64,000 nt of DNA from a virus (Duplodnaviria; Heunggongvirae; Uroviricota; Caudoviricetes), in IMG/VR virus record IMGVR_UViG_3300031857_000071, positions 18,271 to 82,270 of that record; one strand, given 5' to 3'. Under the pieces are notes generated by a model, which saw only the letters and a list, made by a program, of their open reading frames with translations, was not told the DNA's origin and ran no database searches. Numbering within the stretch: the first letter of the stretch is position 1; the number at the start of each line of letters is the position of its first letter. Made by a program: the position numbers and the translations under genes. This document shows positions 1,552 through 23,736 of the stretch, piece by piece.

Positions 1552-2568
1552 TTAAATTCTTCCTGAATATGATTTTGGATTAAGAGTTGCTTGTGTTGTT
1601 GCTACGAGAGATTGTGCGCCTGCGACTGTTGATGTTGTTGCACTTACTGTCTTGTTAACATCGTTAATTAAACCTTTAACTTCACCTACAAGCCCACCAG
1701 AACTGGTTGCTATTGATAATGCAGATTTCAATGAGTTGTAAAGTGCCGCCAAACAATCTTGAAACATTTGTAATAATCTTGCAGGTAAACTTAAAATCCA
1801 TGCAATCATTTTTTGCACATATGCAACATATCTTGCAATTTCAAGTATAACATTGTTGATAAAATCTAAAAAATCCCTAATATCTTTCAATATACCCCGA
1901 ATAACTTTGATTGCACCAATGATCTGTGTGACCAATGGAGAACTTGAGGCTCCTGAAGTGATTGCTTCGATTCCTTTTCTTATAGCTTGAAATAAAGTTG
2001 AATTTTTTAGGTCTTCAAGTGCCTGTTTGAATCTTATGTTATTGGCTATATCACAAACGTGCGCCCTCGACTTGTCAGACTTTTCAATTCCGGTACCCTT
2101 ATATGTATTCGATGTAGCTGGCGCTGTTGATTCACCCACACGCACAGGTTTCATTGCTGGTGTGTCGGAGTAAACAACTGGTGTTATCGCATTCGACTCA
2201 TTTAATGAAGAATTTGTATATTTTGCTTTTGCAAAAAAACCTCTACCTTCTACCTCATCCGCTTCTTGTTGCGGTATGGCAGGAAACACACCAAGCATGG
2301 CTGGTGCCTGTGATGAAAGACCATCCATAAAGAAACCAAAAACATAGTCACCTTCCATTGGTGTGGAAAATGTCCTAGAATCATTTACAGGATACAATGG
2401 TGTTGCCCAAGGTAATTCAGATGTTGGAATTTCCTGTAAGTTATCGGTGTGAGAACCAAAAATCCTAACTTTACAACGACCCACGTTCAATGGATCAACA
2501 CGGTCTTCTACGACACCAATCCACCAAACGAAATCGTCGTGTCCGAGTCTATTTTTAAATTCTGTCAT
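1552..2568 (-). CDS. Baseplate hub subunit: gp5-like N-terminal OB-fold domain protein with no lysozyme domain
   Basis: N-terminus WWIGVVEDRVDPLNVGRCKVRIFGSH matches the conserved gp5/VgrG OB-fold motif (vGvVedv.DP...GRvrVRi.G.H). Confidence 0.5.
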   Translation of the reverse strand: MTEFKNRLGHDDFVWWIGVVEDRVDPLNVGRCKVRIFGSHTDNLQEIPTSELPWATPLYPVNDSRTFSTPMEGDYVFGFFMDGLSSQAPAMLGVFPAIPQQEADEVEGRGFFAKAKYTNSSLNESNAITPVVYSDTPAMKPVRVGESTAPATSNTYKGTGIEKSDKSRAHVCDIANNIRFKQALEDLKNSTLFQAIRKGIEAITSGASSSPLVTQIIGAIKVIRGILKDIRDFLDFINNVILEIARYVAYVQKMIAWILSLPARLLQMFQDCLAALYNSLKSALSIATSSGGLVGEVKGLINDVNKTVSATTSTVAGAQSLVATTQATLNPKSYSGRI

Positions 2569-4019
2569 TATACATCACCTTTTATTGCTTTTTGCATGTC
2601 ACCTGAATTGTCATAATTATCAACCGATGCACTGTAACTATCTTTAACAACTTCAAGTATAGTTTCATATTTACCCGCAAAATCAATAATATGGCGAACG
2701 GCTGTAATCATATAAATTCCTGAGTGAAATGGATCTTCTTCACCGGCATCATAACCAGATTCATTCTTACTTCTGCTTGATGGTAAAGACACACCCACTA
2801 ACATACCAACAGTTAAGTTTGGATCACCTGAAACTGAAAGTTTAATTCTAGAATAATGTGAAAGAGAAAGCTGTGCAGTTCTGTTTGGTACATAATCTTC
2901 TACTCTAACATCATTGGCAACATTCCACGGTTCTTCACTGATTCCCAATGCTTTCTTTTGATCGGAATTAGATACTGTAACTTTCAATACTGCATCATAA
3001 TTCTCATTAGCTTTTTTACCAAGTCTATTTTTCAATTCTGGTATTAAAGAGTTTTCATTTAGTTTTTTTGAATTTTGAAAATATGCTGAATAATCAAATT
3101 TTGTGTCTTTGAAGGTTCTTGTTAGAGGATCAATTGAAATCAATCTATTAGCAAAAGCACCGGATATAGTTCCATACAAAGTGTCGAAAGTGTCGAGAAA
3201 CACATATGATTTTATACCAATAAGGTTTCTACCCAACTCCGCACTTTTAATTTCCCAACCAACACCATTTATTTTATTACCAGCACTTCTCGGTATGTAA
3301 ATAAATTGTATGTATGGTTTTTGTGAAAAGAGATTTTGTAATGAGTAAAAATTGAAACCCTCAGCGTTTTCATAAAAAAGAAAATCAGCACCTTTTTTGC
3401 CAATAGGTTTCGCATAATTTGACAACCAATTAATAGCTTCGAATGGCTTCTTATATGGTATTACAAAATCGTAAAGACCATCTGTTTCCTGCATTCTAAT
3501 AAACTTTTTATCAATTTTTAATTTGTCCGAAAGTATGTCGTATATAATTTCTGATATTTTTTTACCTGAATATGATTTGCTAACTTTTGTTTGCTCGGAT
3601 AATAATAATTCTTCTGAGCAAAAATGTAGTGCATATGTTTCTGTTGCACTATTGTTTAATACTCTTTCAGAAACACGATAAATTCTAAAATATTTTTCAG
3701 TTGTTAATTCTTCATTTGATTTTATAGTTTTCTTAAATTTTAATTTAAGATAATCGAATCCTGACATTCCGAGTCTGTCAATTAAACTTATTGAATCGTT
3801 GATTAATATACTTCCGCTTGTTATTCCTTTAAAAATGTCTTCATAATATGATAATTCAACCATCATCATTTTGATGTTTGTGTTATCTTTTGCAGTAATA
3901 ATGTATGCTTCATCAAGACTGTAATCATCAGCCGTAATTAAACCACGGGTTTGTACGACAGGTGCTTCTTTCGGTGCCAAAATTGAATTTTGGCCAGCAA
4001 CTTCAATATTTTGTAACAT
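2568..4019 (-). CDS. Putative baseplate hub/structural protein (gp27-like position)
   Basis: 483-aa ORF start-overlapping the gp5-like ORF in the structural operon. No diagnostic motif seen. Confidence 0.3.
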   Translation of the reverse strand: MLQNIEVAGQNSILAPKEAPVVQTRGLITADDYSLDEAYIITAKDNTNIKMMMVELSYYEDIFKGITSGSILINDSISLIDRLGMSGFDYLKLKFKKTIKSNEELTTEKYFRIYRVSERVLNNSATETYALHFCSEELLLSEQTKVSKSYSGKKISEIIYDILSDKLKIDKKFIRMQETDGLYDFVIPYKKPFEAINWLSNYAKPIGKKGADFLFYENAEGFNFYSLQNLFSQKPYIQFIYIPRSAGNKINGVGWEIKSAELGRNLIGIKSYVFLDTFDTLYGTISGAFANRLISIDPLTRTFKDTKFDYSAYFQNSKKLNENSLIPELKNRLGKKANENYDAVLKVTVSNSDQKKALGISEEPWNVANDVRVEDYVPNRTAQLSLSHYSRIKLSVSGDPNLTVGMLVGVSLPSSRSKNESGYDAGEEDPFHSGIYMITAVRHIIDFAGKYETILEVVKDSYSASVDNYDNSGDMQKAIKGDV

Positions 4020-4669
4020 TATGCAACTTTCATTAATACTTTAAGTTGTTGTTCCATTTCACCTGCATATGTACTATTCAATAACTTAATTTGTCTCCTA
4101 GACTCATTTAATTCTTCTTCGTAATCATATAACGTTACAATATTTTTTGTTGTTGATACAATACATTGTGTTCCGTTTGCAACTGGAGGATCGGGTATAT
4201 CATATGTTACCGTAGATTCTGTGAGCGTATTATATTCGCTTTGTGTTATTGAAACTTCTTTAATAGTTTCTGTTCTGGTATAAACATCAGTTGTTGTTAT
4301 AATTTTTTTATATTCATATACGGTTGTTTGTGTATATTCAAAAGGTGTTTTTCCTGCATCCTCTGCTTCTGTTGCATATTTTGAACCCAGGTATTCCAGG
4401 AAAGATGCATATGGCATTGGCCATTCCCAAACAGGATCTAAAATTTGATTTGAGAATAAAACTATCCAATATTTGAATGGATCACCATAATATTTTTCAG
4501 CAACAATCTCCGGTGTATCACCTTCTTGTATCGCATACTCATAGAATTGCATTGGATTGTTTATCAATTCTTGAACTAATGCCGCACGTGCCAACAAATT
4601 GGTCATCAATATAGGATAACCATTTTGGTCTGGTGTAATTATTTTAGGTAATGTTTTGAAATAGTACAT
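4019..4669 (-). CDS. Hypothetical baseplate-module protein
   Basis: 216-aa ORF coupled by ATGA overlaps on both sides, within the baseplate operon. Confidence 0.3.
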   Translation of the reverse strand: MYYFKTLPKIITPDQNGYPILMTNLLARAALVQELINNPMQFYEYAIQEGDTPEIVAEKYYGDPFKYWIVLFSNQILDPVWEWPMPYASFLEYLGSKYATEAEDAGKTPFEYTQTTVYEYKKIITTTDVYTRTETIKEVSITQSEYNTLTESTVTYDIPDPPVANGTQCIVSTTKNIVTLYDYEEELNESRRQIKLLNSTYAGEMEQQLKVLMKVA

Positions 4670-13721: not shown

Positions 13722-14603
13722 TTATTCTTCGGCTAGCTTAGAGAAATAAGCCAAATCATCATCATCTTCAGCAATACCGGCATCCGCCATCACTGGCGCA
13801 GGCTTACGTGGCATTGCTTTAGCTTGTTCAACTGTAGTCTTTGCGGCTACTGGTGAACCATCAAGGCCGAGAACTTTATCAAGGCGTGCCTTCAACTCAT
13901 CATAAGACTTGAAGTTTTCTGGTGCAAGGAACTCTTTGAGGGAGTATTCTTTCTTCCAGATTGCTTCTAGCTTCTCATCGTCATCCAACAATGCGGATGG
14001 AGATTCGAATTCAGACTTATCATAGTTCTGATAGCCCTCAACTTTACGAATCTTGAGTTTGAAGTTTGCACCAGCCCACATATCAAAAGGATTAATTGGC
14101 TTTTCATCCTCAAAAGCAGGATTCATTGCTTCGTTAATCTTATCAAAGATTTTTTTTCCGAACTTGTAAAGGAAAACTTTACCTTCGTTCTGAGGATTCT
14201 TAGAATCTTCAACAACGTAGATGTTAGCCATGTAAGACAGGCGGCGCTTTTGCTTACGTGCAACTTCCTTGTTTGCTTCGATGCCAGAGTTCCACAACTG
14301 AGAGTTGTATTCAGAAACTGGATCTTTCTGACCAAGAGTGGTCAGTGAGTTTTCGATGTACCAGCCACCAGGTCCCTGGAAGCCGTGATTGAAAACTTTC
14401 ACCCATGGTAGGGCGTCATCACCATCAACGGAAGGTTGAGGAAGAAAACGAATAACTGCATAACCGTTACCAGCCTTATCGACTTCGGGTTTCCAGAAAT
14501 TATCTTCTTTGGTTGGGGATTCGGTCGTATTGAGTTGCTCAATAGCCTTTGCGAGTTTGTCCAGGTTGCTGGAGTTACGCTTGAGATTTGCGAATGAAGA
14601 CAT
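13722..14603 (-). CDS. 32: Single-stranded DNA-binding protein gp32
   Basis: GNGYAVIRFLPQP, VFNHGFQ, EGKVFLYKFGKKIFDKIN and an acidic C-terminal tail. Colinear with T4 gp32. Confidence 0.85.
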   Translation of the reverse strand: MSSFANLKRNSSNLDKLAKAIEQLNTTESPTKEDNFWKPEVDKAGNGYAVIRFLPQPSVDGDDALPWVKVFNHGFQGPGGWYIENSLTTLGQKDPVSEYNSQLWNSGIEANKEVARKQKRRLSYMANIYVVEDSKNPQNEGKVFLYKFGKKIFDKINEAMNPAFEDEKPINPFDMWAGANFKLKIRKVEGYQNYDKSEFESPSALLDDDEKLEAIWKKEYSLKEFLAPENFKSYDELKARLDKVLGLDGSPVAAKTTVEQAKAMPRKPAPVMADAGIAEDDDDLAYFSKLAEE

Positions 14604-14686: not shown

Positions 14687-15169
14687 TCAAAGATACATCT
14701 TCAGCATTGCGATAGTAGAAACGGCATCTGTGTGAAGTATGCCAATACCACCGGCTTTGTTCCAATCATCGATAACGGATTTAGTGTCATCGATAATGAT
14801 GGAATCTGGAGTAGCATACTTGTATTTCAGGGATTTACCTGGAACAAAGTTTGCTTTGTAGTGAATGTTGTGCTTGTTCAACCACATTTGTTTTTGTGGT
14901 GCAATCATTCCGTGATTTTCAGGTCGTGCAGTTGACGAAAGGATTTCTTTAGGTACATCAAAACTGTTCAAGTAACTCAGGAGTTCAAGTGCATCAGGCA
15001 TGAGGTCAAGTGTACTGAATTCACCATCTTCAATGAACTTTTTGAAGAACCCATTAAATTCTTTATTGCTTCGTGTTTCCTCTGGTGTCGCACGGAACTT
15101 TTCCTTGTAACGTTTAGAGAAATCTGCAATCACGCCATCCATATCAACGTAAACGGTTTGTATTTTCAT
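14687..15169 (-). CDS. HAD-superfamily 5'(3')-deoxyribonucleotidase-like protein
   Basis: N-terminal VYVDMDGVIADF (DxDxV motif), about 160 aa. Confidence 0.5.
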   Translation of the reverse strand: MKIQTVYVDMDGVIADFSKRYKEKFRATPEETRSNKEFNGFFKKFIEDGEFSTLDLMPDALELLSYLNSFDVPKEILSSTARPENHGMIAPQKQMWLNKHNIHYKANFVPGKSLKYKYATPDSIIIDDTKSVIDDWNKAGGIGILHTDAVSTIAMLKMYL

Positions 15170-15774
15170 GTTGTAGTCAGATTTAAGTTTTTCTTAAGTA
15201 TTGCAAGCATCTTGGGTTTATCAAAGTTTAAGAATGGTTTATACTTCTCACAACTCTTGACGAATTCTGGAAAGATAATGTCATCATCAACTTTTTTAAC
15301 CCACATGGGCAAGAAGTTTAATAACTCATTTAAGATAATTAAAGTCTCTTTAGCACACATATCTTGCATATAAAGATTATACAACAACGGGTACTGTTTG
15401 TCAACCACCCTGAGCAATTCTTCCGGATTGTTTACCGAATCGAATAGCCTGTGGAGGTCTTGTTCAAAAACATAGGAGAGGGACTGTTGGGTTTTTTGCC
15501 ACACCTTGTATTCGGACTCCGCATCCTCGGACAGAAGGTCACCCACCCATATTTTTGGATTCACTAGCATATTGGCAACAAAAAAACCAAAGAGTTCATC
15601 ACGCTTGTATTTTCTGGACAGTTTATAGAATTGAAACTTGTCCTTACGGAGCATGAATTGGTCTTTGGTTACATTTGTTTTGCCAGAATACTTCACATAA
15701 TCATACTTTGAAGTGAAATGTAGTTTCAATGCATGAAACAGAGCATACGCTTCAAAACCACCGGCTTCACTCAT
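15166..15774 (-). CDS. 59: gp59 helicase-loader protein (loads the gp41 helicase)
   Basis: KYDYVKYSGKTNVTKDQFMLRKDKFQFYKLSRKYK parallels T4 gp59 KYDVIKYNWCMRVSDAAYQKRRDKYFFQKLSEKYK. Lies upstream of gp32 as in T4. Confidence 0.7.
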   Translation of the reverse strand: MSEAGGFEAYALFHALKLHFTSKYDYVKYSGKTNVTKDQFMLRKDKFQFYKLSRKYKRDELFGFFVANMLVNPKIWVGDLLSEDAESEYKVWQKTQQSLSYVFEQDLHRLFDSVNNPEELLRVVDKQYPLLYNLYMQDMCAKETLIILNELLNFLPMWVKKVDDDIIFPEFVKSCEKYKPFLNFDKPKMLAILKKNLNLTTT

Positions 15775-15992
15775 AATGGCAACTTATTCACTTTCTTAAT
15801 CATATTTGCGGCTTGTGCTTCATCAGAAATTTTGGCTTTGATTGGTGCAGTGAGAAGTGTTGCGGCAATCTCTACTTCAAAACCAGTTTCTTCACAGTGT
15901 AGAATAATAGCATCCATATAGGGTATTCTTTTCTTTTGCACAATTTCTTCAATAATGGCTGAGAACTTTCGTTGTTCTTCCTTAGTGGCCAT
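15771..15992 (-). CDS. Hypothetical protein
   Basis: 73-aa ORF coupled to gp59. Confidence 0.3.
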   Translation of the reverse strand: MATKEEQRKFSAIIEEIVQKKRIPYMDAIILHCEETGFEVEIAATLLTAPIKAKISDEAQAANMIKKVNKLPL

Positions 15993-16207
15993 TATTTCTT
16001 ACCCATTGAATAAGCAATGCAAACAGCATTCGTGGCAGTTTCATACGCACACTTAACGGAGATTGGATCGATACCTTTTTGGATAGCTGATTCAATATTC
16101 TTTGCCATGTTGTTACGATCATTGATGTTGTAAATTGTAAATGCGGCGATAGATGAACACACTGCAAGTGTGATACAAACAATAACCGTGATAACTTCTT
16201 TTTGCAT
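15992..16207 (-). CDS. Small single-pass membrane protein (about 72 aa). Start trimmed to the ATG just after the SleB-like stop.
   Basis: TM segment VITVIVCITLAVCSSIAAFTIY. The track ORF 15992-16273 overlaps the hydrolase gene and probably starts at the internal ATG at 16205-16207. Confidence 0.35.
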   Translation of the reverse strand: MQKEVITVIVCITLAVCSSIAAFTIYNINDRNNMAKNIESAIQKGIDPISVKCAYETATNAVCIAYSMGKK

Positions 16208-16208
16208 T

Positions 16209-16763
16209 TTAGATGACTCCTTTGTTTCTGTCAATTTCGTCTTTGTTGCTTCTGTAGAAGATGTGTCTGCCAATTTGGTCTACCTTTTTTAATTTCCATT
16301 GTGGATTAACATAGTCTGCATGGTAATATGTTGCACCGTTTGTTACATCGGTTTGATGTTCAAAGTTGATGACCATATTAATTGCTAACTGACGAATCTC
16401 ATTATACAACGAGGTGCCTCGAATTGTCAACTGTTTATCGGTACTTTTCTTCTCACAATACCAAGAGAATTGACATACACCACCGGTTTTCTGATACACT
16501 ACTCCGCAAATGTCATTCGCATAATTACCTGTTCTGAGCCTATTAAATGTAACGAAAGCAACGGCTTTCTTGCCATCGAGTGGCTCATTTGCGGCTTCAA
16601 AATAGATATTATCAGCTAGGCAAGTTATTTGTTTCTGTGTCTCCTTATCTAAGGAATGAAAACTTGCCTTGAATGGTAAATTATATAAATCTATATTTAC
16701 CATTGACAGTGATATGATGACTGCGGAAAATAGTATGCTTAAAAGTATTGGTTTACTTTGCAT
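16209..16763 (-). CDS. SleB-family cell wall hydrolase with signal peptide
   Basis: N-terminal hydrophobic signal. C-terminal GATYYHADYVNPQW resembles the SleB/Hydrolase_2 signature. Confidence 0.6.
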   Translation of the reverse strand: MQSKPILLSILFSAVIISLSMVNIDLYNLPFKASFHSLDKETQKQITCLADNIYFEAANEPLDGKKAVAFVTFNRLRTGNYANDICGVVYQKTGGVCQFSWYCEKKSTDKQLTIRGTSLYNEIRQLAINMVINFEHQTDVTNGATYYHADYVNPQWKLKKVDQIGRHIFYRSNKDEIDRNKGVI

Positions 16764-16774
16764 TTTTATTTCCT

Positions 16775-17079
16775 ATGTGTTGAACATGGTGGTTGGTTAT
16801 TCTGTTACGAGGAAACCAACCGAAACCCTAGTCAGCGTTTAGGCTGCCAATGCGAACTTTTCATCGTTTGCGTTTACTTTGATTTAGTTTTTACACCTGC
16901 TCTGGTGAGTTGTCCACTTCTGTACTTGTTGCCCTGTCGAAACCTGGTCATCCCCATCAAAAACACACCCCATTACAGCCCTCAGAGGTTTCTTTCATGT
17001 AAGACATGTGTTTTTGGTGGAGATGGGCGGAATCGAACCGCCGTCCAGAACACTTTTCTAGTTGCTTCATACAACCATA
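16775..17079 (-). ncRNA. ssrA: Circularly permuted (two-piece) tmRNA (ssrA). The acceptor piece is upstream and the coding piece downstream. Tag peptide ANDEKFALAA.
   Basis: Acceptor-piece 3' end ...GGACGGCGGUUCGAUUCCGCCCAUCUCCACCA ends at 17015, with a T-arm and 3' acceptor strand. About 60 nt downstream (5' end at 16955) is GGGGAUGACCAGGUUUCGACAGGG, compare E. coli GGGGCUGAUUCUGGAUUCGACGGG. GGGGAUG pairs with CAUCUCC including a G3-U wobble. Tag ORF GCA AAC GAU GAA AAG UUC GCA UUG GCA GCC UAA at 16839-16871. Confidence 0.8.
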
Positions 17080-17085
17080 GCCTCT

Positions 17086-17114
17086 ATTATAGAGGTTTTT
17101 TATTTAGGTGTCAA
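17086..17114 (-). promoter_or_regulatory. Consensus sigma70-type promoter for the tmRNA precursor
   Basis: Minus strand TTGACA - 17 nt - TATAAT, about 8 nt upstream of the inferred precursor 5' end. Confidence 0.6.
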
Positions 17115-17140
17115 GCGTTTTTGTAGTTTAAATGGTAAAC

Positions 17141-17794
17141 TTATGATTTTGGTTTAATACATTCCACACAGAGTGATTCAACTGCTCTTAGTGGATCATC
17201 GAAACGTAATTTGTCGTTCTGGTGTAAATCATAGTTTCCATCAGCATAGCTTGTTCTTCGAACATTTTCAAATCCAATCGAACTGAGAAGCCAGAGAAGT
17301 GTTTCAAAATCATATGTAGCTTTATGGTCGTGGTCATGCATGGCTGAGTTGAACAAAGAACCGCTTGTTCTCATCAAATGGGCCTTTTCTCTGAATCCTT
17401 CCATCTTCATGTAGGTTTCGAAAAAATGCATCTTTTTTGTTTTATATGCATCAATCCAGAACTCTAAATCTGGAACAATCAGTCTCATTTTTCCTCCAGG
17501 TTTTAATGCTCTGAAACATTCCTGTAGTATGAATAGGCCGTCCAGATAACTAACATGTTCTAAGAAGTGTGACTGATATATTCCCTCTAAAGAGTTGTCT
17601 GCGGCAGGAATGTCTTTAGTTAAATCGAAATTTAGATAGAACTTTCCGCTAGGCAGTTGAACAAAATCTTCATGTGGTCCATTAGGTTGAAAATCAATAT
17701 TCAAGTATGGTTCATCTTTATCGTCCGGACCTGAACCAAGATTGTAGTGAGAAAAACGGTCCGAATATTTTTTATATTTTATTGCATTAGTCAT
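17141..17794 (-). CDS. SAM-dependent methyltransferase
   Basis: LKPGGKMRLIVPD-type motif of class I methyltransferases. Confidence 0.45.
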   Translation of the reverse strand: MTNAIKYKKYSDRFSHYNLGSGPDDKDEPYLNIDFQPNGPHEDFVQLPSGKFYLNFDLTKDIPAADNSLEGIYQSHFLEHVSYLDGLFILQECFRALKPGGKMRLIVPDLEFWIDAYKTKKMHFFETYMKMEGFREKAHLMRTSGSLFNSAMHDHDHKATYDFETLLWLLSSIGFENVRRTSYADGNYDLHQNDKLRFDDPLRAVESLCVECIKPKS

Positions 17795-17795
17795 A

Positions 17796-18461
17796 TCAAT
17801 ACTGTAGTGCTGTCATATATTTAAATTCAGTTAGGTTTGTGATATCACCATAACCACCAACAGGCATGAGATTAAATGCTAAACTATAACGGGACTTGTT
17901 CGTATCATTCTTCGGAACAAAGTGCGGTAGATGAGATGGAAATATGATGAGCCTACCTTTAGATGCAGGTACAGCAAAATGATAGATAGAAAAATCATTT
18001 TGTATTTTATGATTCTTTTTTGGAATCATCTGAAACATTGCAGAAGTACCTGCATTTTTTTCGAATATTAATGCCGAATTTTCATCATATTCATCGTCAA
18101 AATACAACACACCTGAAATAAAACTATTCGGATGCACATGTGTTTTGTGTTCTTGTGAGTTAGTCTTGTTGTTGACCCACGATAACACATCAACCAAACC
18201 TTCAACTTCAAAACCCATAACTTCTGTTGCAAATTTTTTGGCATTTATCAGAATGTTATTTCTAATTGACGAAAGTTTTTCTAAACGAAGCACTTGCTTA
18301 TTCTCGGTATTTTCACCCCATATATCGCATACCTTTTCTCCACTTGGGAGTAGTTCTTCCACTCTATTTGTTTTTAATGAATACAATTCATCCTGAATTT
18401 CTTTGGTGATCTCCAGGTTTTGTATAAAAATTGGTGTTGGGAAAATAGGAATAACATTCAT
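17796..18461 (-). CDS. 2OG-Fe(II) oxygenase-family protein (cyanophage-type 2OG-FeII_Oxy_5-like)
   Basis: HKTHVHPNSFISGVLYF ... HLPHFV motif. Paralogous to the next gene. Confidence 0.5.
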   Translation of the reverse strand: MNVIPIFPTPIFIQNLEITKEIQDELYSLKTNRVEELLPSGEKVCDIWGENTENKQVLRLEKLSSIRNNILINAKKFATEVMGFEVEGLVDVLSWVNNKTNSQEHKTHVHPNSFISGVLYFDDEYDENSALIFEKNAGTSAMFQMIPKKNHKIQNDFSIYHFAVPASKGRLIIFPSHLPHFVPKNDTNKSRYSLAFNLMPVGGYGDITNLTEFKYMTALQY

Positions 18462-19168
18462 TATAAAACATCCCTATAATTAAATTGAGTAAGTTCTTCT
18501 GCTGAACCTAGACCATCTTTTGTTAGCAAATTAAATGCAAGGCTATATCTGTTAAAGGGTGTGGTGTTTAAATCAACTTGATGCACCAAAGTGGCCGGAA
18601 ATAACACCAAAGTTCCCTTGGAAACTTTAACAGTGGCGACTCGCCTAGTACTGAAAGGTGCTTCAGCAATTCCTGATATACATTCTGGAGGTAAATATTT
18701 CGGACGTAAAATAAATTCACTCTCTGAATCTGGATGCATTTTATTCGAAAAATGTAGCGGCATATTTTCCGTGTGTTCATCGAAAAAATATACTCCCGAA
18801 ATTATACTGTTTGGATGACTATGTGGCATGTGTTGATTATTCGGACGTTTTACTGTCACCCATGATAGCACATCTATCATTTCATTGGTGTCGATACCCA
18901 ATAAATCACGTGCAAATTCTTTTCCGGCGTATAGAATTTTTTTCCTCAAATCTTTACAAATGTCATCACGCAAAATCATAACATTTGTGGATACTGCACC
19001 ATAACCAGCAGGTTCTGTTCCTATAGGATGATTTAGTTCCGTATTCGTTAGATAATTTTGTAATTCATTCGATGGTTGATATTCGCCAATTGCAATAGGT
19101 TTAGCTAACACGGGATGCACTATTAAATTCAACATTTCATCATTATTTTCACTCATCATTTTCTCCAT
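18461..19168 (-). CDS. 2OG-Fe(II) oxygenase-family protein, paralog of the preceding gene
   Basis: HMPHSHPNSIISGVYFF ... TLVHQV. ATGA-type overlap with its neighbour. Confidence 0.5.
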   Translation of the reverse strand: MEKMMSENNDEMLNLIVHPVLAKPIAIGEYQPSNELQNYLTNTELNHPIGTEPAGYGAVSTNVMILRDDICKDLRKKILYAGKEFARDLLGIDTNEMIDVLSWVTVKRPNNQHMPHSHPNSIISGVYFFDEHTENMPLHFSNKMHPDSESEFILRPKYLPPECISGIAEAPFSTRRVATVKVSKGTLVLFPATLVHQVDLNTTPFNRYSLAFNLLTKDGLGSAEELTQFNYRDVL

Positions 19169-19174
19169 TTAAAA

Positions 19175-19738
19175 TTAAAAAGCCCAAGTAACAAATGACC
19201 ATCTCTCACCTTTGGTCACAGTTTCAACTCTATGTCGATACATAAAAGCTGAGGGAAAAATTAGAACATCTCCCTTTTTCATGTTTATTTTCAAATCATC
19301 AAACATTATAAATTCACCGCCTTCATAATCATCATTTAGACAACCAACAATAGATAGTAGAGGACTGCCAGAACCTTTTTCGAAAATACTCACAATATTA
19401 TCACTGTGTTCCGACATACTTGTTCCTGTCACATATCTATTTATTCTGAATTCAGATGTGTGTCTTAACTGGATATGAACGGGATGGCGATTCATATAGG
19501 AATTTATCCATTCAATACATTTTTTTGCCAGATAGTCGAGATGTTCACCTTCAAATACCAAATTCAAAAGTTCCTTATCCCTTCTCGTTGAAATATTCAT
19601 TGTTTTATTTGGATCATAACTTGTCCATGCATGTTCAATCCAGTCATCTCTTACGGAGTATTTTTTGATGGCACTGTCGCAAAATTCTTCAGGTAATACA
19701 CCCTTCATCAAATGAATATATTCATAAAGTTGTTTCAT
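19175..19738 (-). CDS. Prolyl-4-hydroxylase-like 2OG-Fe(II) oxygenase
   Basis: HSDNI (HxD) ... GGEF ... H ... RWSFVTWAF (RxS) arrangement. Confidence 0.5.
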   Translation of the reverse strand: MKQLYEYIHLMKGVLPEEFCDSAIKKYSVRDDWIEHAWTSYDPNKTMNISTRRDKELLNLVFEGEHLDYLAKKCIEWINSYMNRHPVHIQLRHTSEFRINRYVTGTSMSEHSDNIVSIFEKGSGSPLLSIVGCLNDDYEGGEFIMFDDLKINMKKGDVLIFPSAFMYRHRVETVTKGERWSFVTWAF

Positions 19739-19819
19739 GTTTCCTCACTAAAAAAATTAAAATCACGAATTATTTATATATAAATAGGAGGGTTAGTTAT
19801 AAAATAACGGAGAAATTAT

Positions 19820-21001
19820 ATGCCATTGACATTATCCACGGACAATCTTACTGCATCGGGACTTAGCCTAAGCGGTTCTGTCCCCACACCTTTCATTCCT
19901 GCACCAGGACCACAGACTTCAACTTATAATAGTACGTATGCAGGTGCCACCAGTAGAATAAGGCTTTTAAGTGCTCCGGTACCGGGAAGTATATATCCCC
20001 AGGCCTTTTTGGAAATTCCTATTCCAACACTTACTGATAATCAGTCTTATCCAGGTATTTCCGCAGGTCGAGTTCAGGGTGGTGACGGTGGAATCAGATT
20101 GATATCTAATTTAAACACATCGAATGATCCTGCCGCCAATCAAAACCGCTCCAACTTTTTAATGGGCGTTTATACTGATACTCCTGCGTCTAATACATAT
20201 CCTTTGCAAGTCGGCCGTAGATTCTCTCCTGGTGTTTCTGGACAGTCATCTTACCTTGGTGGACTTGCCGTTCTTGGTCAGACAACTATGGACTCCACTC
20301 CAATTGGCACAGCCGCCCAACCCGGCGGTGCATACACGCTTGATTTAGTTAGAAACGCACCTGCACCTATTTCTGCTCCAAGTGGAGCGGTGATGAGGAT
20401 GAGCGCCGGTGCACCAGGTGTAACAGCTTATTACGTCACTTTTCAACAAGGCGCAGAAAGAGGCTCAATATTTACTCCAGGATCAACAACAACTTATGCA
20501 ACCAGTTCAGACTATCGATTAAAAGATAATATTACTCCACTTGATTCTGAAGAAGAATTACAAAGAATCAATCAGTTACGTCCCCGTAAATGGAATTGGA
20601 AAACCAACCAAGATCCTGGAGTGGGCTTCATCGCACATGAACTTCAAGAAACATTTGAAGATGCGAATAAACTAGGTATGGTTTCAGGAAGCAAAGATTC
20701 TGTCACACGTAAGGGTAGAATTGTTGACGTTACAACAGGTGAACCAATTCATAGAGTGCCAAAAATAGATGAAACGACTGGTGAAGAAACTATAGAATAC
20801 TTTTACGTAGATGAACCAACTATTGAAGACGCCGCAAATCTGGCTGCCGATGGTAAAGAATGGGTATATCATCACGATGAACCACTCTATCAAGCAATCG
20901 ATACATCTTTCTTAGCTTCATCCACAGTAGCGGCTATTCAGGCTTTAACAAATAGAGTCACATCACTTGAATCTAGAGTTGCGGCACTTGAATCCATATA
21001 A
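19820..21001 (+). CDS. Tail fibre/spike-like structural protein with a C-terminal intramolecular chaperone (peptidase S74-type) domain
   Basis: SDYRLKDNITPL (SDxRxK autocleavage motif) followed by GFIAHELQETF and a C-terminal coiled-coil LTNRVTSLESRVAALESI. Confidence 0.6.
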   Translation: MPLTLSTDNLTASGLSLSGSVPTPFIPAPGPQTSTYNSTYAGATSRIRLLSAPVPGSIYPQAFLEIPIPTLTDNQSYPGISAGRVQGGDGGIRLISNLNTSNDPAANQNRSNFLMGVYTDTPASNTYPLQVGRRFSPGVSGQSSYLGGLAVLGQTTMDSTPIGTAAQPGGAYTLDLVRNAPAPISAPSGAVMRMSAGAPGVTAYYVTFQQGAERGSIFTPGSTTTYATSSDYRLKDNITPLDSEEELQRINQLRPRKWNWKTNQDPGVGFIAHELQETFEDANKLGMVSGSKDSVTRKGRIVDVTTGEPIHRVPKIDETTGEETIEYFYVDEPTIEDAANLAADGKEWVYHHDEPLYQAIDTSFLASSTVAAIQALTNRVTSLESRVAALESI

Positions 21002-21696
21002 CGAATTCTACTTGATTTCCTATCAAATATAATCATAAATTGATCTAAACGAATCATAACCTCAAGAGGGTCCACAAGACCCTCTTCCATTACCTTATTG
21101 AAAAGTCTTTTAGCCGAGTGATTGTCAACGGAATATGCAAAAGGTTCTCCCATGCATGGCCAGTTGCTATTGTGAAACAAAGGCTTATCATCAGAAAGGC
21201 AATGAATTGAATTTCTGGGAACATGTTCCTTTAGAGGTTCCATCAAAATTGCATCGTGTTCTAAAATAATACAAGGTTTACCCATACTCATGCATTTACT
21301 CCATGCCGCCATGTGAGTAAGTATTCTACAAACCTGATTGTGATTTAATCTCGATTTGAGTCTAACTTGATTAGTCCATTCCTGTGACTCATAATAAAGT
21401 GGTGGAAAAACTTCCTTGATTTTTACATTATCATAAGCATGTGGTGACACTTCAGTACGATCTAGAAAGTTGAAAGATTCAATAAGATGCAAACTGTAAC
21501 CAAATCTTTCCGCAGATGAGGTTGCTCTTTTATGCATGGGTCCTTGCAATACAATAACATCCGAAATACCAAAATCACTATAGTTTGGAACAAGATTCAT
21601 CCCTCTTGTATCCAATCTATGAAAAAGTGGTAGATGTGCATTGGGATTATTTCTGTAGTTATCTGTTCTGTATGTCATAATGAAACACCCGGACAA
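20938..21696 (-). CDS. Glycosyltransferase family 25 (LPS-type) protein
   Basis: CRILTHMAAWSKCMSMGKPCIILEHDAIL matches the GT25 core (C.LSH..W......IILEDD). Confidence 0.45.
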   Translation of the reverse strand: MSGCFIMTYRTDNYRNNPNAHLPLFHRLDTRGMNLVPNYSDFGISDVIVLQGPMHKRATSSAERFGYSLHLIESFNFLDRTEVSPHAYDNVKIKEVFPPLYYESQEWTNQVRLKSRLNHNQVCRILTHMAAWSKCMSMGKPCIILEHDAILMEPLKEHVPRNSIHCLSDDKPLFHNSNWPCMGEPFAYSVDNHSAKRLFNKVMEEGLVDPLEVMIRLDQFMIIFDRKSSRIRYMDSSAATLDSSDVTLFVKA

Positions 21697-23048
21697 GTTG
21701 TAATTTCTTTTCGAACTTGTATTGAATCATATTTTGTGCATATTGTTGACACTTTTTCACAATCAAATAACTGTGTTGCATAAAGTTTTGTGTATACGAA
21801 TTCGAATTTAGATGAATCGCAAAAAACATCATTTACATTTTTAATTCCTTCTAACAGACATGCGGTGAACAGTCTTTTCGCCATAGCAGGATCTATGGCA
21901 TACGCATGTTGGCCCATTGGAAAGAAATAATTTTCACTTCCATAATTTAGCATTGCATTGTCTAATTTTTCTTTTTGTGTATTTTCATTTAGATAGTCGA
22001 TAAGATAACAGTAGTCGTTTTTTAAGTTTTTATCACTTATCATTTCTTGTGCAATATAATTGTGTCCAAGATAGTGTAAACAATTATAAAAAGGAAAATG
22101 TGTGTATGGTTGAAGCATAACAGCATCATGTTCCAAAATCACAATTGGTTTATTAATTGTTATGCAATGTGCCCATAATGCCACGTGGCTTAACGTACAA
22201 CCAATCTCAGGATAAGACATTTTCGAATCGACAACTTTGATCCATTTCATATAATCATTATTCTTCAGATGATCTGGTGTTTTTATTTGTTTCCTGTCTG
22301 AGCCATCATATCCATGAAACAATTTATATTTCATTCCGGCTCTCTGGAGTGACTGTATACACAACTCCAACCTTGTATCCGATATGATGTTATCTTTCAG
22401 ACAAATTATATACGCACCTTCAATCTCAGAATTGTAATTGCTGTTTAGATTCACTCCATCATCATGTTTAGTATGAAATTTGTGTTTAACACTTTTTGGT
22501 ATTTTTGAACACCAAATTTGACCAAATTGAGTTACATCAGATAGGCATGTTGTAACTGCCTCTACTACACCCGGAAAGTCTTTTACACCAAAGTCATCAC
22601 CGGCTATGACACCACCTTCTTTCATTTTCGGTAGCCACGCTTGAATGTCTTTCATAACACCCTCGAAAGAATGATCTCCATCTATAAACAAAAAGTCGAT
22701 TGACTTATCTGGATATCTTGATGCTAATGAAGAACTGTCACCAACAATCGGATTGACGATGTGTTTGACCGGCTCAATATTAGCCAGAAATTCTTTTTGA
22801 AGTGTATTGTTCTGAATGGACTCATATGCTTGATGTTCACCTGAACCCATAAAAGAATCTATGGCATCAAACTTGATTTTTTTACCTGAGTTGTTAATCT
22901 CAACTCCCATCATAACTGTGGATTTACCCTTCCAACAACCAATCTCAACAAAATGGGCGCCGTCAGAAGCGGTGTCAACCATTCTTTTGTATAATTTGGT
23001 TTGCTCTACAGTTAACCATCCTTCAATATCCCAATGATAGTATTCCAT
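21675..23048 (-). CDS. Fusion protein: class I SAM methyltransferase (Methyltransf_24-like) N-terminal half plus GT25 glycosyltransferase C-terminal half
   Basis: N-term HFVEIGCWKGKST ... FLFIDGDHSFEGV. C-term GCTLSHVALWAHCITINKPIVILEHDAVM. Confidence 0.5.
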   Translation of the reverse strand: MEYYHWDIEGWLTVEQTKLYKRMVDTASDGAHFVEIGCWKGKSTVMMGVEINNSGKKIKFDAIDSFMGSGEHQAYESIQNNTLQKEFLANIEPVKHIVNPIVGDSSSLASRYPDKSIDFLFIDGDHSFEGVMKDIQAWLPKMKEGGVIAGDDFGVKDFPGVVEAVTTCLSDVTQFGQIWCSKIPKSVKHKFHTKHDDGVNLNSNYNSEIEGAYIICLKDNIISDTRLELCIQSLQRAGMKYKLFHGYDGSDRKQIKTPDHLKNNDYMKWIKVVDSKMSYPEIGCTLSHVALWAHCITINKPIVILEHDAVMLQPYTHFPFYNCLHYLGHNYIAQEMISDKNLKNDYCYLIDYLNENTQKEKLDNAMLNYGSENYFFPMGQHAYAIDPAMAKRLFTACLLEGIKNVNDVFCDSSKFEFVYTKLYATQLFDCEKVSTICTKYDSIQVRKEITTCPGVSL

Positions 23049-23076
23049 AATTACTCCATAATATATTAATCTGTTT

Positions 23077-23736
23077 TTATCTATTATTCTTATAGAAAGA
23101 AATATGTTCTATTAGGTTATGTATATGGTCTTCCGTACTCTCAATAAAAATAAGTGGACTTTCATTCTCAACCGCCATAACAATCACAATCTGGTCAATC
23201 GGAACACCAACATGTTCTTCATACATGCCAGAATATGCAGTACATTGTGCAAAATAGTCCTGTATGTCTTCCTTCTGTTTAATCTTCTTTGAAGTTTTAA
23301 AGTCAATTACAGATAGTACACCGTCCCATTCAGCAATCAAGTCAACACGACCAGCCATACCGATGCGTTCAGACCAGAGTGCCTGTTCAATGTAGTGTAT
23401 ATTATCGATTCTTTGTATCGATGGAATTAATGTGCGGAACATCTCCACAGCATCAGGCATTTCCCGTACCCAATCGATCTTTTCATTCTTTAGATACCGT
23501 TCTGCTAGGTCATGCACACGATTACCACGACCTGTGGCAAGTTTGGAAATACGGTTGGCTTCAACTTCACCAACCCTATTTCTCCACTCCATGATTGCCT
23601 GTTTTTTCATTGCACCAACAACAGTCGTAACCGATGGCAAGCGTTTACCGCTAGGTGAAGTGTAATAGCGTTTGCCGTCTGAGTGTGTTTCCGATTTTAG
23701 GTCAGGAAGGACCATTGGTGAGCAATGTGTAAACAT
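23077..23736 (-). CDS. PD-(D/E)XK nuclease (RecB/Cas4-like fold, no Cys cluster)
   Basis: GRVDLIAEWDGVLSVIDFKTSKK (D ... D-x-K). Confidence 0.4.
   Translation of the reverse strand: MFTHCSPMVLPDLKSETHSDGKRYYTSPSGKRLPSVTTVVGAMKKQAIMEWRNRVGEVEANRISKLATGRGNRVHDLAERYLKNEKIDWVREMPDAVEMFRTLIPSIQRIDNIHYIEQALWSERIGMAGRVDLIAEWDGVLSVIDFKTSKKIKQKEDIQDYFAQCTAYSGMYEEHVGVPIDQIVIVMAVENESPLIFIESTEDHIHNLIEHISFYKNNR

Follow-up and report, generated by a model that had tools for sequence, protein, structure and literature searches.

Two-piece transfer-messenger RNA (tmRNA), the product of a circularly permuted ssrA gene, was reportedly described in beta-proteobacteria by Sharkady and Williams in 2004. Among phages, a 2014 census recorded ssrA only in mycobacteriophages and phage G, together with a tmRNA-inhibiting form in phage DS6A that comprises only the tRNA-like domain (TLD) (PMC4131195). 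Buchholz et al. (2022) reported that the T4-like OM43 phage Melnitz has a two-piece ssrA, found that 17 of 47 Melnitz-like contigs contained a permuted tmRNA, and counted 53 two-piece tmRNAs among 18,146 phage genomes, 50 of which were from marine or aquatic samples (PMC9004378). The permuted genes in Table S1 of that study include those of the Synechococcus phages S-CAM1, S-CAM3, S-CRM01, S-SSM7, and S-CBWM1, the pelagimyophages HTVC008M and Mosig, the Stenotrophomonas phages Mendera, Moby, and YB07, and the phiCbK group (PMC9004378). A tmRNA database published in 2025 holds 79 phage sequences and introduced the Rfam family RF04321 (PMC11915505). In cyanophage genome papers, tmRNA was named only among the entries of reference lists. 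The locus described here lies on the minus strand of a 64-kb stretch (hereafter, the window) of an uncultivated T4-like phage (IMG/VR record IMGVR_UViG_3300031857_000071), and is very probably a genuine, functional beta-type two-piece (circularly permuted) ssrA. An initial annotation of this DNA had left undecided whether such an element was already known from this phage group. Permuted tmRNAs of aquatic T4-like phages had in fact been catalogued (PMC9004378, Table S1), and the window gene is a beta subtype of this phenomenon that standard tools detect at once. The additions made here are modest, and consist of the size, diversity, and fixed neighborhood of the viral family, the covariation of the spacer stem, the strict distribution of the tag, and a covarying hairpin at the -10 box.

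The described phage systems share several features with the window gene. Melnitz, HTVC008M, and Mosig are likewise T4-like aquatic myophages with a permuted ssrA, an early promoter, and no reported SmpB, and similar functional speculation has been put forward for them (PMC9004378). In contrast to the window gene, which is of the beta type and has no glnA match, their tmRNAs are of the alpha type, with a glutamine (glnA) riboswitch as part of the 3' domain. The neighborhoods also differ, with a transcription coactivator, thyX, and curli genes in the Melnitz type and Hydrolase_2, gp59, and gp32 in the window. The mycobacteriophages of the Bxz1 group, Bacillus phage G, and DS6A similarly bear ssrA without a phage SmpB (PMC4131195), but these genes are one-piece with the standard order or lack a tag frame, and belong to unrelated phage lineages with unrelated hosts.

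Identity and structure of the permuted gene

ARAGORN called a permuted tmRNA (tmRNA*) with the tag ANDEKFALAA at 16748-17107 on the minus strand, which was the sole gene that it called in the 64 kb; no tRNA gene was called by ARAGORN across the window. The same gene matched the Rfam family RF01850 (beta_tmRNA) along the entire model (positions 1-331 of 331; 155.2 bits, threshold 84, E = 8e-48) and RF04321 (tmRNA_permuted), also at full length (model 1-213; 132 bits, threshold 47, E = 1.3e-25), and beta_tmRNA was its best match within the tmRNA clan. At curated thresholds, Rfam returned no other RNA family in the whole window, including glnA RNA, and no match to alpha_tmRNA was reported. The initial annotation had proposed a permuted two-piece tmRNA and suggested ARAGORN and Rfam covariance models as a check; both call the tmRNA, and the RF01850 and RF04321 scores, which exceed their thresholds, bear out the proposal. 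It had likened the permuted arrangement to that of alpha-proteobacteria and some cyanobacteria; the subtype is instead beta-proteobacterial, given the full-length match to RF01850 above threshold and the homology to Cupriavidus genes. Because the gene was called by ARAGORN, reached these Rfam E-values, and covaried above all of 500 shuffled controls, the predicted tmRNA is far beyond chance.

The acceptor half is encoded before the 5' half and the tag, which, with the RF04321 score above threshold, shows the permuted order. All of the following parts lie on the minus strand. The acceptor piece (17015-17078, approximately 64 nt) was delimited by Rfam alignment and covariation and contains the 5' strands of P2c (17076-17071) and P2a (17052-17046), the T-arm (17042-17026), the 3' strand of the acceptor stem (CAUCUCC, 17025-17019), the discriminator A, and an encoded CCA that extends to 17015; its 3' half reads GGACGGCGGUUCGAUUCCGCCCAUCUCCACCA and ends at 17015. 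It is followed by a 59-nt intervening spacer (16956-17014), which matches the gap of approximately 60 nt noted in the initial annotation between the acceptor half and the tmRNA 5' end. The spacer forms a hairpin closed by AAAACACA/UGUGUUUU and, taken alone, folds at a minimum free energy (MFE) of -14.6 kcal/mol; spacer length ranges from 30 to 186 nt across homologues. A 4-nt leader, UGAU, stands between the spacer stem and G1 and is compatible with an RNase P substrate. The coding piece (16789-16955), placed by ARAGORN, Rfam, and covariation and with a putative 3' end, opens with GGGGAUGACCAGGUUUCGACAGGG at 16955. It comprises the 5' strand of the acceptor stem (GGGGAUG, 16955-16949, with G3 at 16953), the 3' strands of P2a (16936-16930) and P2c (16913-16908), and a post-P2 hairpin (CACC...GGUG, 16907-16894), for which no second pseudoknot stem was spotted by eye in the window or in Cupriavidus. 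The GGGGAUG/CAUCUCC pairing that had been proposed, including G3-U, is confirmed, and the tRNA-like domain is complete, with a 7-bp acceptor stem, a T-arm, and the encoded 3' CCA. The tag frame (16839-16871; GCA AAC GAU GAA AAG UUC GCA UUG GCA GCC UAA, stop at 16841-16839) has the alanine resume codon GCA, an LAA end, and a UAA stop; the tag and position given by the initial annotation agree with both ARAGORN and the sequence, and its description of the locus proved correct down to single bases. The post-tag domain (16791-16830) consists of a hairpin, GGUUGGUU (16821-16814)/AACCAACC (16798-16791), and a pseudoknot stem, supported by covariation, between UAGGG (16830-16826) and CCUCG in the hairpin loop (16812-16808).

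For comparative analysis, genes were split into acceptor and coding pieces and aligned with MAFFT, and Rfam-derived pairs were projected from the window. The formal covariation test used 61 diverged sequences (MAFFT alignment A2), with 500 shuffles and slid registers as controls. The proportion of cells that pair was 88.8%, compared with 75.5 +/- 0.5% in shuffles and 42-58% in slid registers. Changes on both sides were observed at 28 of 37 pairs, compared with approximately 20 in shuffles, and the covariation score was 0.415, compared with 0.158 in shuffles (0 of 500 reached the observed value) and 0.05-0.12 in slid registers. The acceptor stem was 100% paired, with UA (28), CG (19), or GC (12) at position 5 and G3-U in 61/61 sequences, and the T-arm was also 100% paired, with swaps among GC, AU, CG, and UA. 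The tRNA-like domain was the most conserved part of the gene. The helices that form between the two pieces were paired in 98.9% (P2a) and 93.9% (P2c) of cells, each with double changes at 5 of 6 pairs. The spacer-closing stem was 91-94% paired and covaried at 8 of 8 pairs; this covariation, together with a geometry common to Cupriavidus, therefore points to selection on the processing substrate. The post-P2 hairpin was misaligned by MAFFT (helix 8, 24% paired) and was folded sequence by sequence instead; it was found in 64 of 77 homologues with different stems, such as CACC/GGUG, CGGU/ACCG, and CGAC/GUCG. The post-tag hairpin was 86% canonical with compensatory changes at all eight pairs, and the pseudoknot core (GGG/CCU) showed 11 GC-to-AU double changes and a pairing of 0.82 in register compared with 0.55-0.73 when slid.

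Constraint on the tag was evaluated in 71 contigs that were found via the tRNA-like domain, with no selection on the tag. The tags began with AN in 67 and with AND in 61 contigs, ended in LAA in 59 and in AA in 66, and were exactly 10 residues long in 53; variation was mostly at positions 4-6. Furthermore, 87 ANDEKFALAA genes that were checked by codon comprised 19 distinct DNA sequences that differed at synonymous sites. A translated degron shows this pattern, and such constraint at the peptide level argues against a decoy that uses only the tRNA-like domain.

Bacterial counterparts and the viral family

The window gene and the Cupriavidus beta type have in common the permuted order, the tRNA-like domain, the P2 helices, the spacer-closing stem, and the UGAU leader. 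Their resume/tag regions are nearly identical, with a hairpin before the tag and a hairpin/pseudoknot after it, and the sampled Cupriavidus species, which were chosen through the tag search, carry ANDEKFALAA. The RF01850 consensus likewise has a promoter at an equal distance. In contrast, the phage gene scores 155 bits compared with 281-287 bits in Cupriavidus, has a longer spacer, and lacks the terminal GC-rich hairpin/terminator, with an open reading frame (ORF) following after 28 nt; it also resides in a T4-like phage of 37-39% GC and not in a chromosome of 58-65% GC. Blastn aligned the two over 252 nt with 69% identity; identity on conserved columns of the alignment was 72%, and Cupriavidus ranked 69th of 104 in similarity to the window. 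The median identity was 0.69 between viral genes and 0.66 between Cupriavidus and viral genes. Measured by distance, the bacterial beta type therefore lies within the viral diversity, and genes may have flowed between phages and bacteria in either direction.

A scan of 185,579 bacterial species, with one genome per species, identified the exact tag in 32 genomes, of which 31 belonged to Burkholderiales and one was a 337-bp Stutzerimonas scrap. The Burkholderiales with this tag included metagenome-assembled genomes of Rubrivivax as well as Roseateles, Ideonella, Mitsuaria, Rhizobacter, Sphaerotilus, Zoogloea, Protistobacter, Cupriavidus, and Pelistega. Most of these bacteria harbored a standard one-piece gene (RF00023, 200-214 bits). 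Permuted genes with this tag were those of Cupriavidus (RF01850, 281-287 bits, the canonical beta type) and Pelistega (144.5 bits). ANDEKFALAA is accordingly common to one-piece (Rubrivivax, Roseateles, and Ideonella) and two-piece (Cupriavidus and Pelistega) genes among the bacterial loci (L190-L221). A prophage origin was considered for the permuted Pelistega gene and rejected, as its neighbors are chromosomal housekeeping genes; the gene is native. In Pelistega europaea, the tmRNA (1696-2078, minus strand, of its locus L200) adjoins the gene for the tail-specific protease Prc (2201-4447, minus strand). Prc degrades ssrA-tagged periplasmic proteins.

The tag had been suggested as a hint to the host, and its confinement to Burkholderiales agrees with this suggestion, whereas base composition gives no corroboration: tag-bearing bacteria have 58-70% GC (Pelistega, 42%), the phage has approximately 37-39%, and the median of the viral loci is 37%. 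The tag may therefore be read as pointing only in part to a Burkholderiales host. The nearest cultured phages by gp32 infect cyanobacteria. Moreover, the tmRNA type is no reliable host indicator, because phage BUCT-ZZ01, reported on Synechococcus elongatus, carries a beta-type gene and an alpha-type gene occurs in the phage of a non-alpha host (PMC9004378).

A viral set of 189 loci was obtained from two pattern scans of IMG/VR plus two loci from cultured phages, and the true total is at least 189. The scan for the layout (T-loop to CCA, 40-70 nt, and then GGGGNUG...GGUUUCGAC) matched 75 contigs, and the scan for the tag in any codon usage matched at least 119. ARAGORN called a permuted tmRNA in 156 of the 189 loci, and none had only the standard form. 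The exact ANDEKFALAA tag was present in 91 of the 156 called genes, and thus in at least 91 in IMG/VR. The viral genes formed 103 clusters at <92% identity. Homologues of the window's neighboring genes were located near the tmRNA in many of the 189 loci (Hydrolase_2 in 145, gp59 in 125, PD-(D/E)XK nuclease in 103, and gp32 in 98). For Hydrolase_2, the 40 closest homologues were examined, and all were on the same strand, downstream of the tmRNA. Because neighboring genes are conserved near the tmRNA in most viral loci, the predicted gene is inherited vertically within a large T4-like lineage.

The gene content of the window bears out the T4-like context that had been proposed for it. Replication and nucleotide genes comprise the gp32 single-strand-binding protein (13722-14603), the gp59 helicase loader (15166-15774), a deoxyribonucleotidase, a T4-type RNase H, both ribonucleotide reductase subunits, and ThyX. 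Structural genes encode baseplate hub, tail-lysozyme, and tail-tube-cap proteins, and auxiliary genes encode PhoH, CobS- and CobT-like proteins, and several 2-oxoglutarate (2OG)-Fe(II) oxygenases. No photosynthesis gene or integrase was found among the large ORFs scanned. GC content across the window is 36-48%, and mostly approximately 38-40%. The tmRNA occupies a gap of 378 nt. On one side is a methyltransferase-like ORF (stop at 17141), and on the other an ORF (16209-16763, minus strand, ATG at 16763; Pfam PF07486, 78 bits) for a cell-wall hydrolase of the Hydrolase_2 (SleB-type) family, whose N-terminus is hydrophobic. Directly upstream of the tmRNA is a variable island of approximately 6 kb (17141-23100) that is shared by almost no relative except the locus L018. 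The island contains the methyltransferase-like ORF, three tandem 2OG-Fe(II) oxygenase ORFs, glycosyltransferase/methyltransferase fusions, and a plus-strand ORF with an S74 (endosialidase-chaperone) tail-fiber domain. In its place, the locus L167 has a homologue of the region from 23139, the start of the PD-(D/E)XK nuclease gene.

In a collection of 50,697 phage genomes, megablast with the 15 kb around the gene gave no match, and no close cultured relative was found. The best cultured gp32 matches, to the cyanomyoviruses S-SCSM1, P-SSM2, and P-SSM5, had only approximately 61% identity. The matches obtained with blastn, to Menderavirus, Xanthomonas phages, and BUCT-ZZ01, were all short. Menderavirus (Mendera, Moby, Marzo, and IME-SM1) and BUCT-ZZ01 were the only cultured-phage relatives of the gene found by BLAST; both are of the beta type (approximately 94.5 bits in Rfam) and permuted by ARAGORN, and the Menderavirus genes had already been annotated or listed as tmRNA. 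However, they are far more diverged from the window, with approximately 70-120 nt that align by blastn, and their tags are VAANDDSYTVRIAA and ANDETFSMALAA. In addition, the Menderavirus gene sits in a tRNA cluster, whereas the window is without a tRNA gene. In BUCT-ZZ01 (ON615601.1, L002), the permuted beta-type tmRNA with the tag ANDETFSMALAA is at 2923-3341 on the minus strand (RF04321, 112 bits) and is not annotated in the record; at 4388-4463 (minus strand) of the same locus, ARAGORN called a tRNA with the anticodon CTA, labeled tRNA-Pyl, which could be an amber suppressor. In Stenotrophomonas phage Marzo (MZ326868.1, L001, 2672-3325), the annotated tmRNA overlaps the annotations of a tRNA-Thr and a tRNA-Leu, and a second overlapping ARAGORN call of a standard tmRNA, with the tag APDLGSDASA, is probably spurious.

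Closer relatives were found among the uncultivated loci. Over 5.4 kb of the window (14899-20347), L018 shows 99.5% identity, and by this measure is the same phage population. Within it, the post-P2 hairpin (approximately 2060-2090 of L018; 16907-16894 of the window) was swapped from CACCAGAGCAGGUG to CGACACAGAGAGUCG with pairing kept. The swapped-in version is the one present in L011, L074, and L167; this suggests recombination of a small patch inside the tmRNA gene. Seven further loci (L167, L165, L105, L161, L119, L164, and L005) share flanking genes at 77-88% identity. A second class of viral acceptor pieces was also observed (alignment A2, columns 1-35; e.g., L003, L006, L009, and L020-L022), in which a local hairpin, CCCUUC...GAAGG(G/C), replaces the weakly paired P2b of the window class.

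Expression, function, and alternative explanations

The TTGACA-N17-TATAAT promoter that had been noted just upstream of the gene was verified as a sigma-70-type promoter at 17086-17114 (minus strand), with a 12/12 match to the consensus (TTGACA at 17114-17109, a 17-nt spacer, and TATAAT at 17091-17086). The transcription start site (TSS) would lie at approximately 17078, so that 2-3 nt precede the first helix in the acceptor piece. The RF01850 model aligns its own UUGA...UAuAAU columns to this promoter. Of 89 viral homologues, 26 had a match of at least 10/12 at the corresponding position; among random 60-mers drawn from these loci, approximately 1% did. In 15 homologues, the -10 box ended exactly 9 nt before P2c, which is the same spacing as in the Rfam consensus; because this spacing is conserved, the 5' end of the acceptor piece may simply be the TSS. 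Six perfect TTGACA-N16-18-TATAAT sites occur in the window (54541-54513, 51989-51962, 45615-45588, 17114-17086, 16430-16401, and 15404-15376), each on the minus strand, where most genes are encoded, and one of them sits within the Hydrolase_2 ORF. By established T4 biology, such consensus sites are read as early promoters, and the six are probably the early-promoter set of the phage. An inverted repeat (CCTCTA-TAA-TAGAGG, 17081-17095) encloses the -10 box of the tmRNA promoter, and its arms stay complementary in the sub-clade of the window (CCACTA/TAGTGG, GCTGCTA/TAGCGGC, TTGAGAG/CTCAAG, and TAATG/CATTA). Together with the A-rich promoter spacer, this repeat scores as a plus-strand intrinsic terminator followed by a T-run (17079-17097 or 17079-17105).

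Downstream, the hydrolase ORF begins 28 nt past the 3' hairpin of the tmRNA, and is probably co-transcribed with it. No terminator was found on the minus strand between 16791 and the hydrolase start at 16763. For this reason, transcription probably continues from the tmRNA into the hydrolase ORF, and processing would have to generate the 3' end of the coding piece.

These features are compatible with the following scheme. Host RNA polymerase would transcribe the gene early in infection, RNase P would cut before G1, and the spacer would be trimmed back to the CCA. The two pieces are predicted to pair in trans through P2a, P2c, and the acceptor stem with its G3-U alanine identity pair, and host alanyl-tRNA synthetase would charge the acceptor piece. 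Host SmpB and EF-Tu would then bring the complex to ribosomes stalled on mRNAs that are broken or lack a stop codon, where translation would resume at GCA and append ANDEKFALAA, and ClpXP-type host proteases would degrade the product. A likely benefit, by conjecture, would be added ribosome-rescue capacity and amino-acid recycling, which would matter when host transcription shutoff and nucleic-acid degradation flood the cell with truncated mRNAs. Manipulation of host trans-translation by the phage, as had been proposed, would be in keeping with this scheme.

Several observations weigh against a functional two-piece tmRNA. The terminal 9-bp GC-rich hairpin/terminator of RF01850 (approximately model positions 308-328), which is present in Cupriavidus and Pelistega and for which some viral homologues (e.g., L013, L015, and L030) kept the terminator, is deleted in the window alignment, and the 3' end of the coding piece is consequently undefined. 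Folding of the pieces had been suggested in the initial annotation; single-sequence MFE folding and cofolding recovered the acceptor stem, the T-arm, and the spacer hairpin but not P2 (z = -1.8). A strong promoter was found at the equivalent place in only 26 of the 89 homologues. Finally, SmpB was not found in the 64 kb by a search that used an E. coli query, gave chance-level hits, and had no positive control; with no SmpB in the window and the rest of the genome unseen, function of the tmRNA would depend on host SmpB.

The SmpB result would also suit a decoy or inhibitor, in which the phage RNA titrates host SmpB or EF-Tu and blocks trans-translation, although the search behind it was weak. 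Such inhibition has been demonstrated for the TLD-only tmRNA of mycobacteriophage DS6A (PMC4131195; PMC11915505), and the high conservation of the tRNA-like domain in the present family is consistent with it. However, a pure decoy would need no tag frame, resume context, or post-tag domain. In the viral genes, the tag frame is complete and constrained as a peptide (AN start, LAA end, 10 residues, and synonymous variation), the context of the resume codon is nearly identical to that of functional bacterial genes, and the post-tag domain covaries, which makes this explanation quite improbable. A functional tmRNA whose main role is counter-defense (rescue after host abortive-infection nucleases or toxins) or the selective destruction of host proteins shares all of the structural evidence with general ribosome rescue; the early-type promoter would fit action at the start of infection, and selective tagging of host proteins has been raised as a possibility (PMC9004378). 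The sequence gives nothing to separate these roles from general rescue, and no defense or anti-defense genes were identified adjacent to the gene. Against a selective role, tmRNA is not known to be able to pick host over phage proteins. We regard such specialized roles as unlikely.

Integration often occurs at tmRNA genes, fragments of which are found in prophages (PMC9004378); the window gene could, from this and from its missing 3'-terminal hairpin, be taken for a passenger, namely, a recent capture from a host, an attP-type remnant, or a decaying pseudogene. However, the gene is complete rather than a 3' fragment, and is located in a T4-like phage with no integrase among the ORFs scanned. 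The nearest bacterial relative found is only 69-72% identical, and the family extends over at least 189 viral contigs (156 callable; 103 clusters at <92% identity) with conserved synteny and pervasive compensatory substitutions. Covariation and synteny effectively refute this explanation. There is scarcely any chance, either, that the locus is a protein-coding ORF on the opposite strand (16758-17126, plus strand, 122 aa, TTG start) with an incidental RNA match. This frame is open in the window and is accompanied by a weak plus-strand promoter-like site (16703-16731) and the plus-strand terminator-like hairpin at 17079-17097, but a frame of at least 100 aa is open in only 24 of 103 homologues, the terminator-like site falls inside the ORF before its stop codon, substitutions follow the RNA helices, and the Rfam match has E = 8e-48.

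Significance for the phage lineage

The window gene adds a well-supported beta-type example to the known phage two-piece tmRNAs, and leaves the understanding of what tmRNA is or how it works unchanged. For the phages, it represents a conserved, vertically inherited trait of a large uncultivated T4-like lineage and not a sporadic capture. The covarying spacer stem provides comparative evidence for selection on precursor processing, and the near-universal AND...ALAA tags argue that these phages perform trans-translation and do not block it. A broader proposal, which we advance only tentatively, is that a large, water-borne, uncultivated T4-like lineage inherits the beta-type two-piece tmRNA vertically within a fixed gp32-gp59-hydrolase module, and that the tag could be a host-matched degron. 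If this were true, hosts could be predicted from the tag, and having the gene in two pieces would be characteristic of the phage lineage and not of the host. In practice, the tag and the RNA subtype may aid host prediction, and the family gives many natural variants for studies of two-piece processing.

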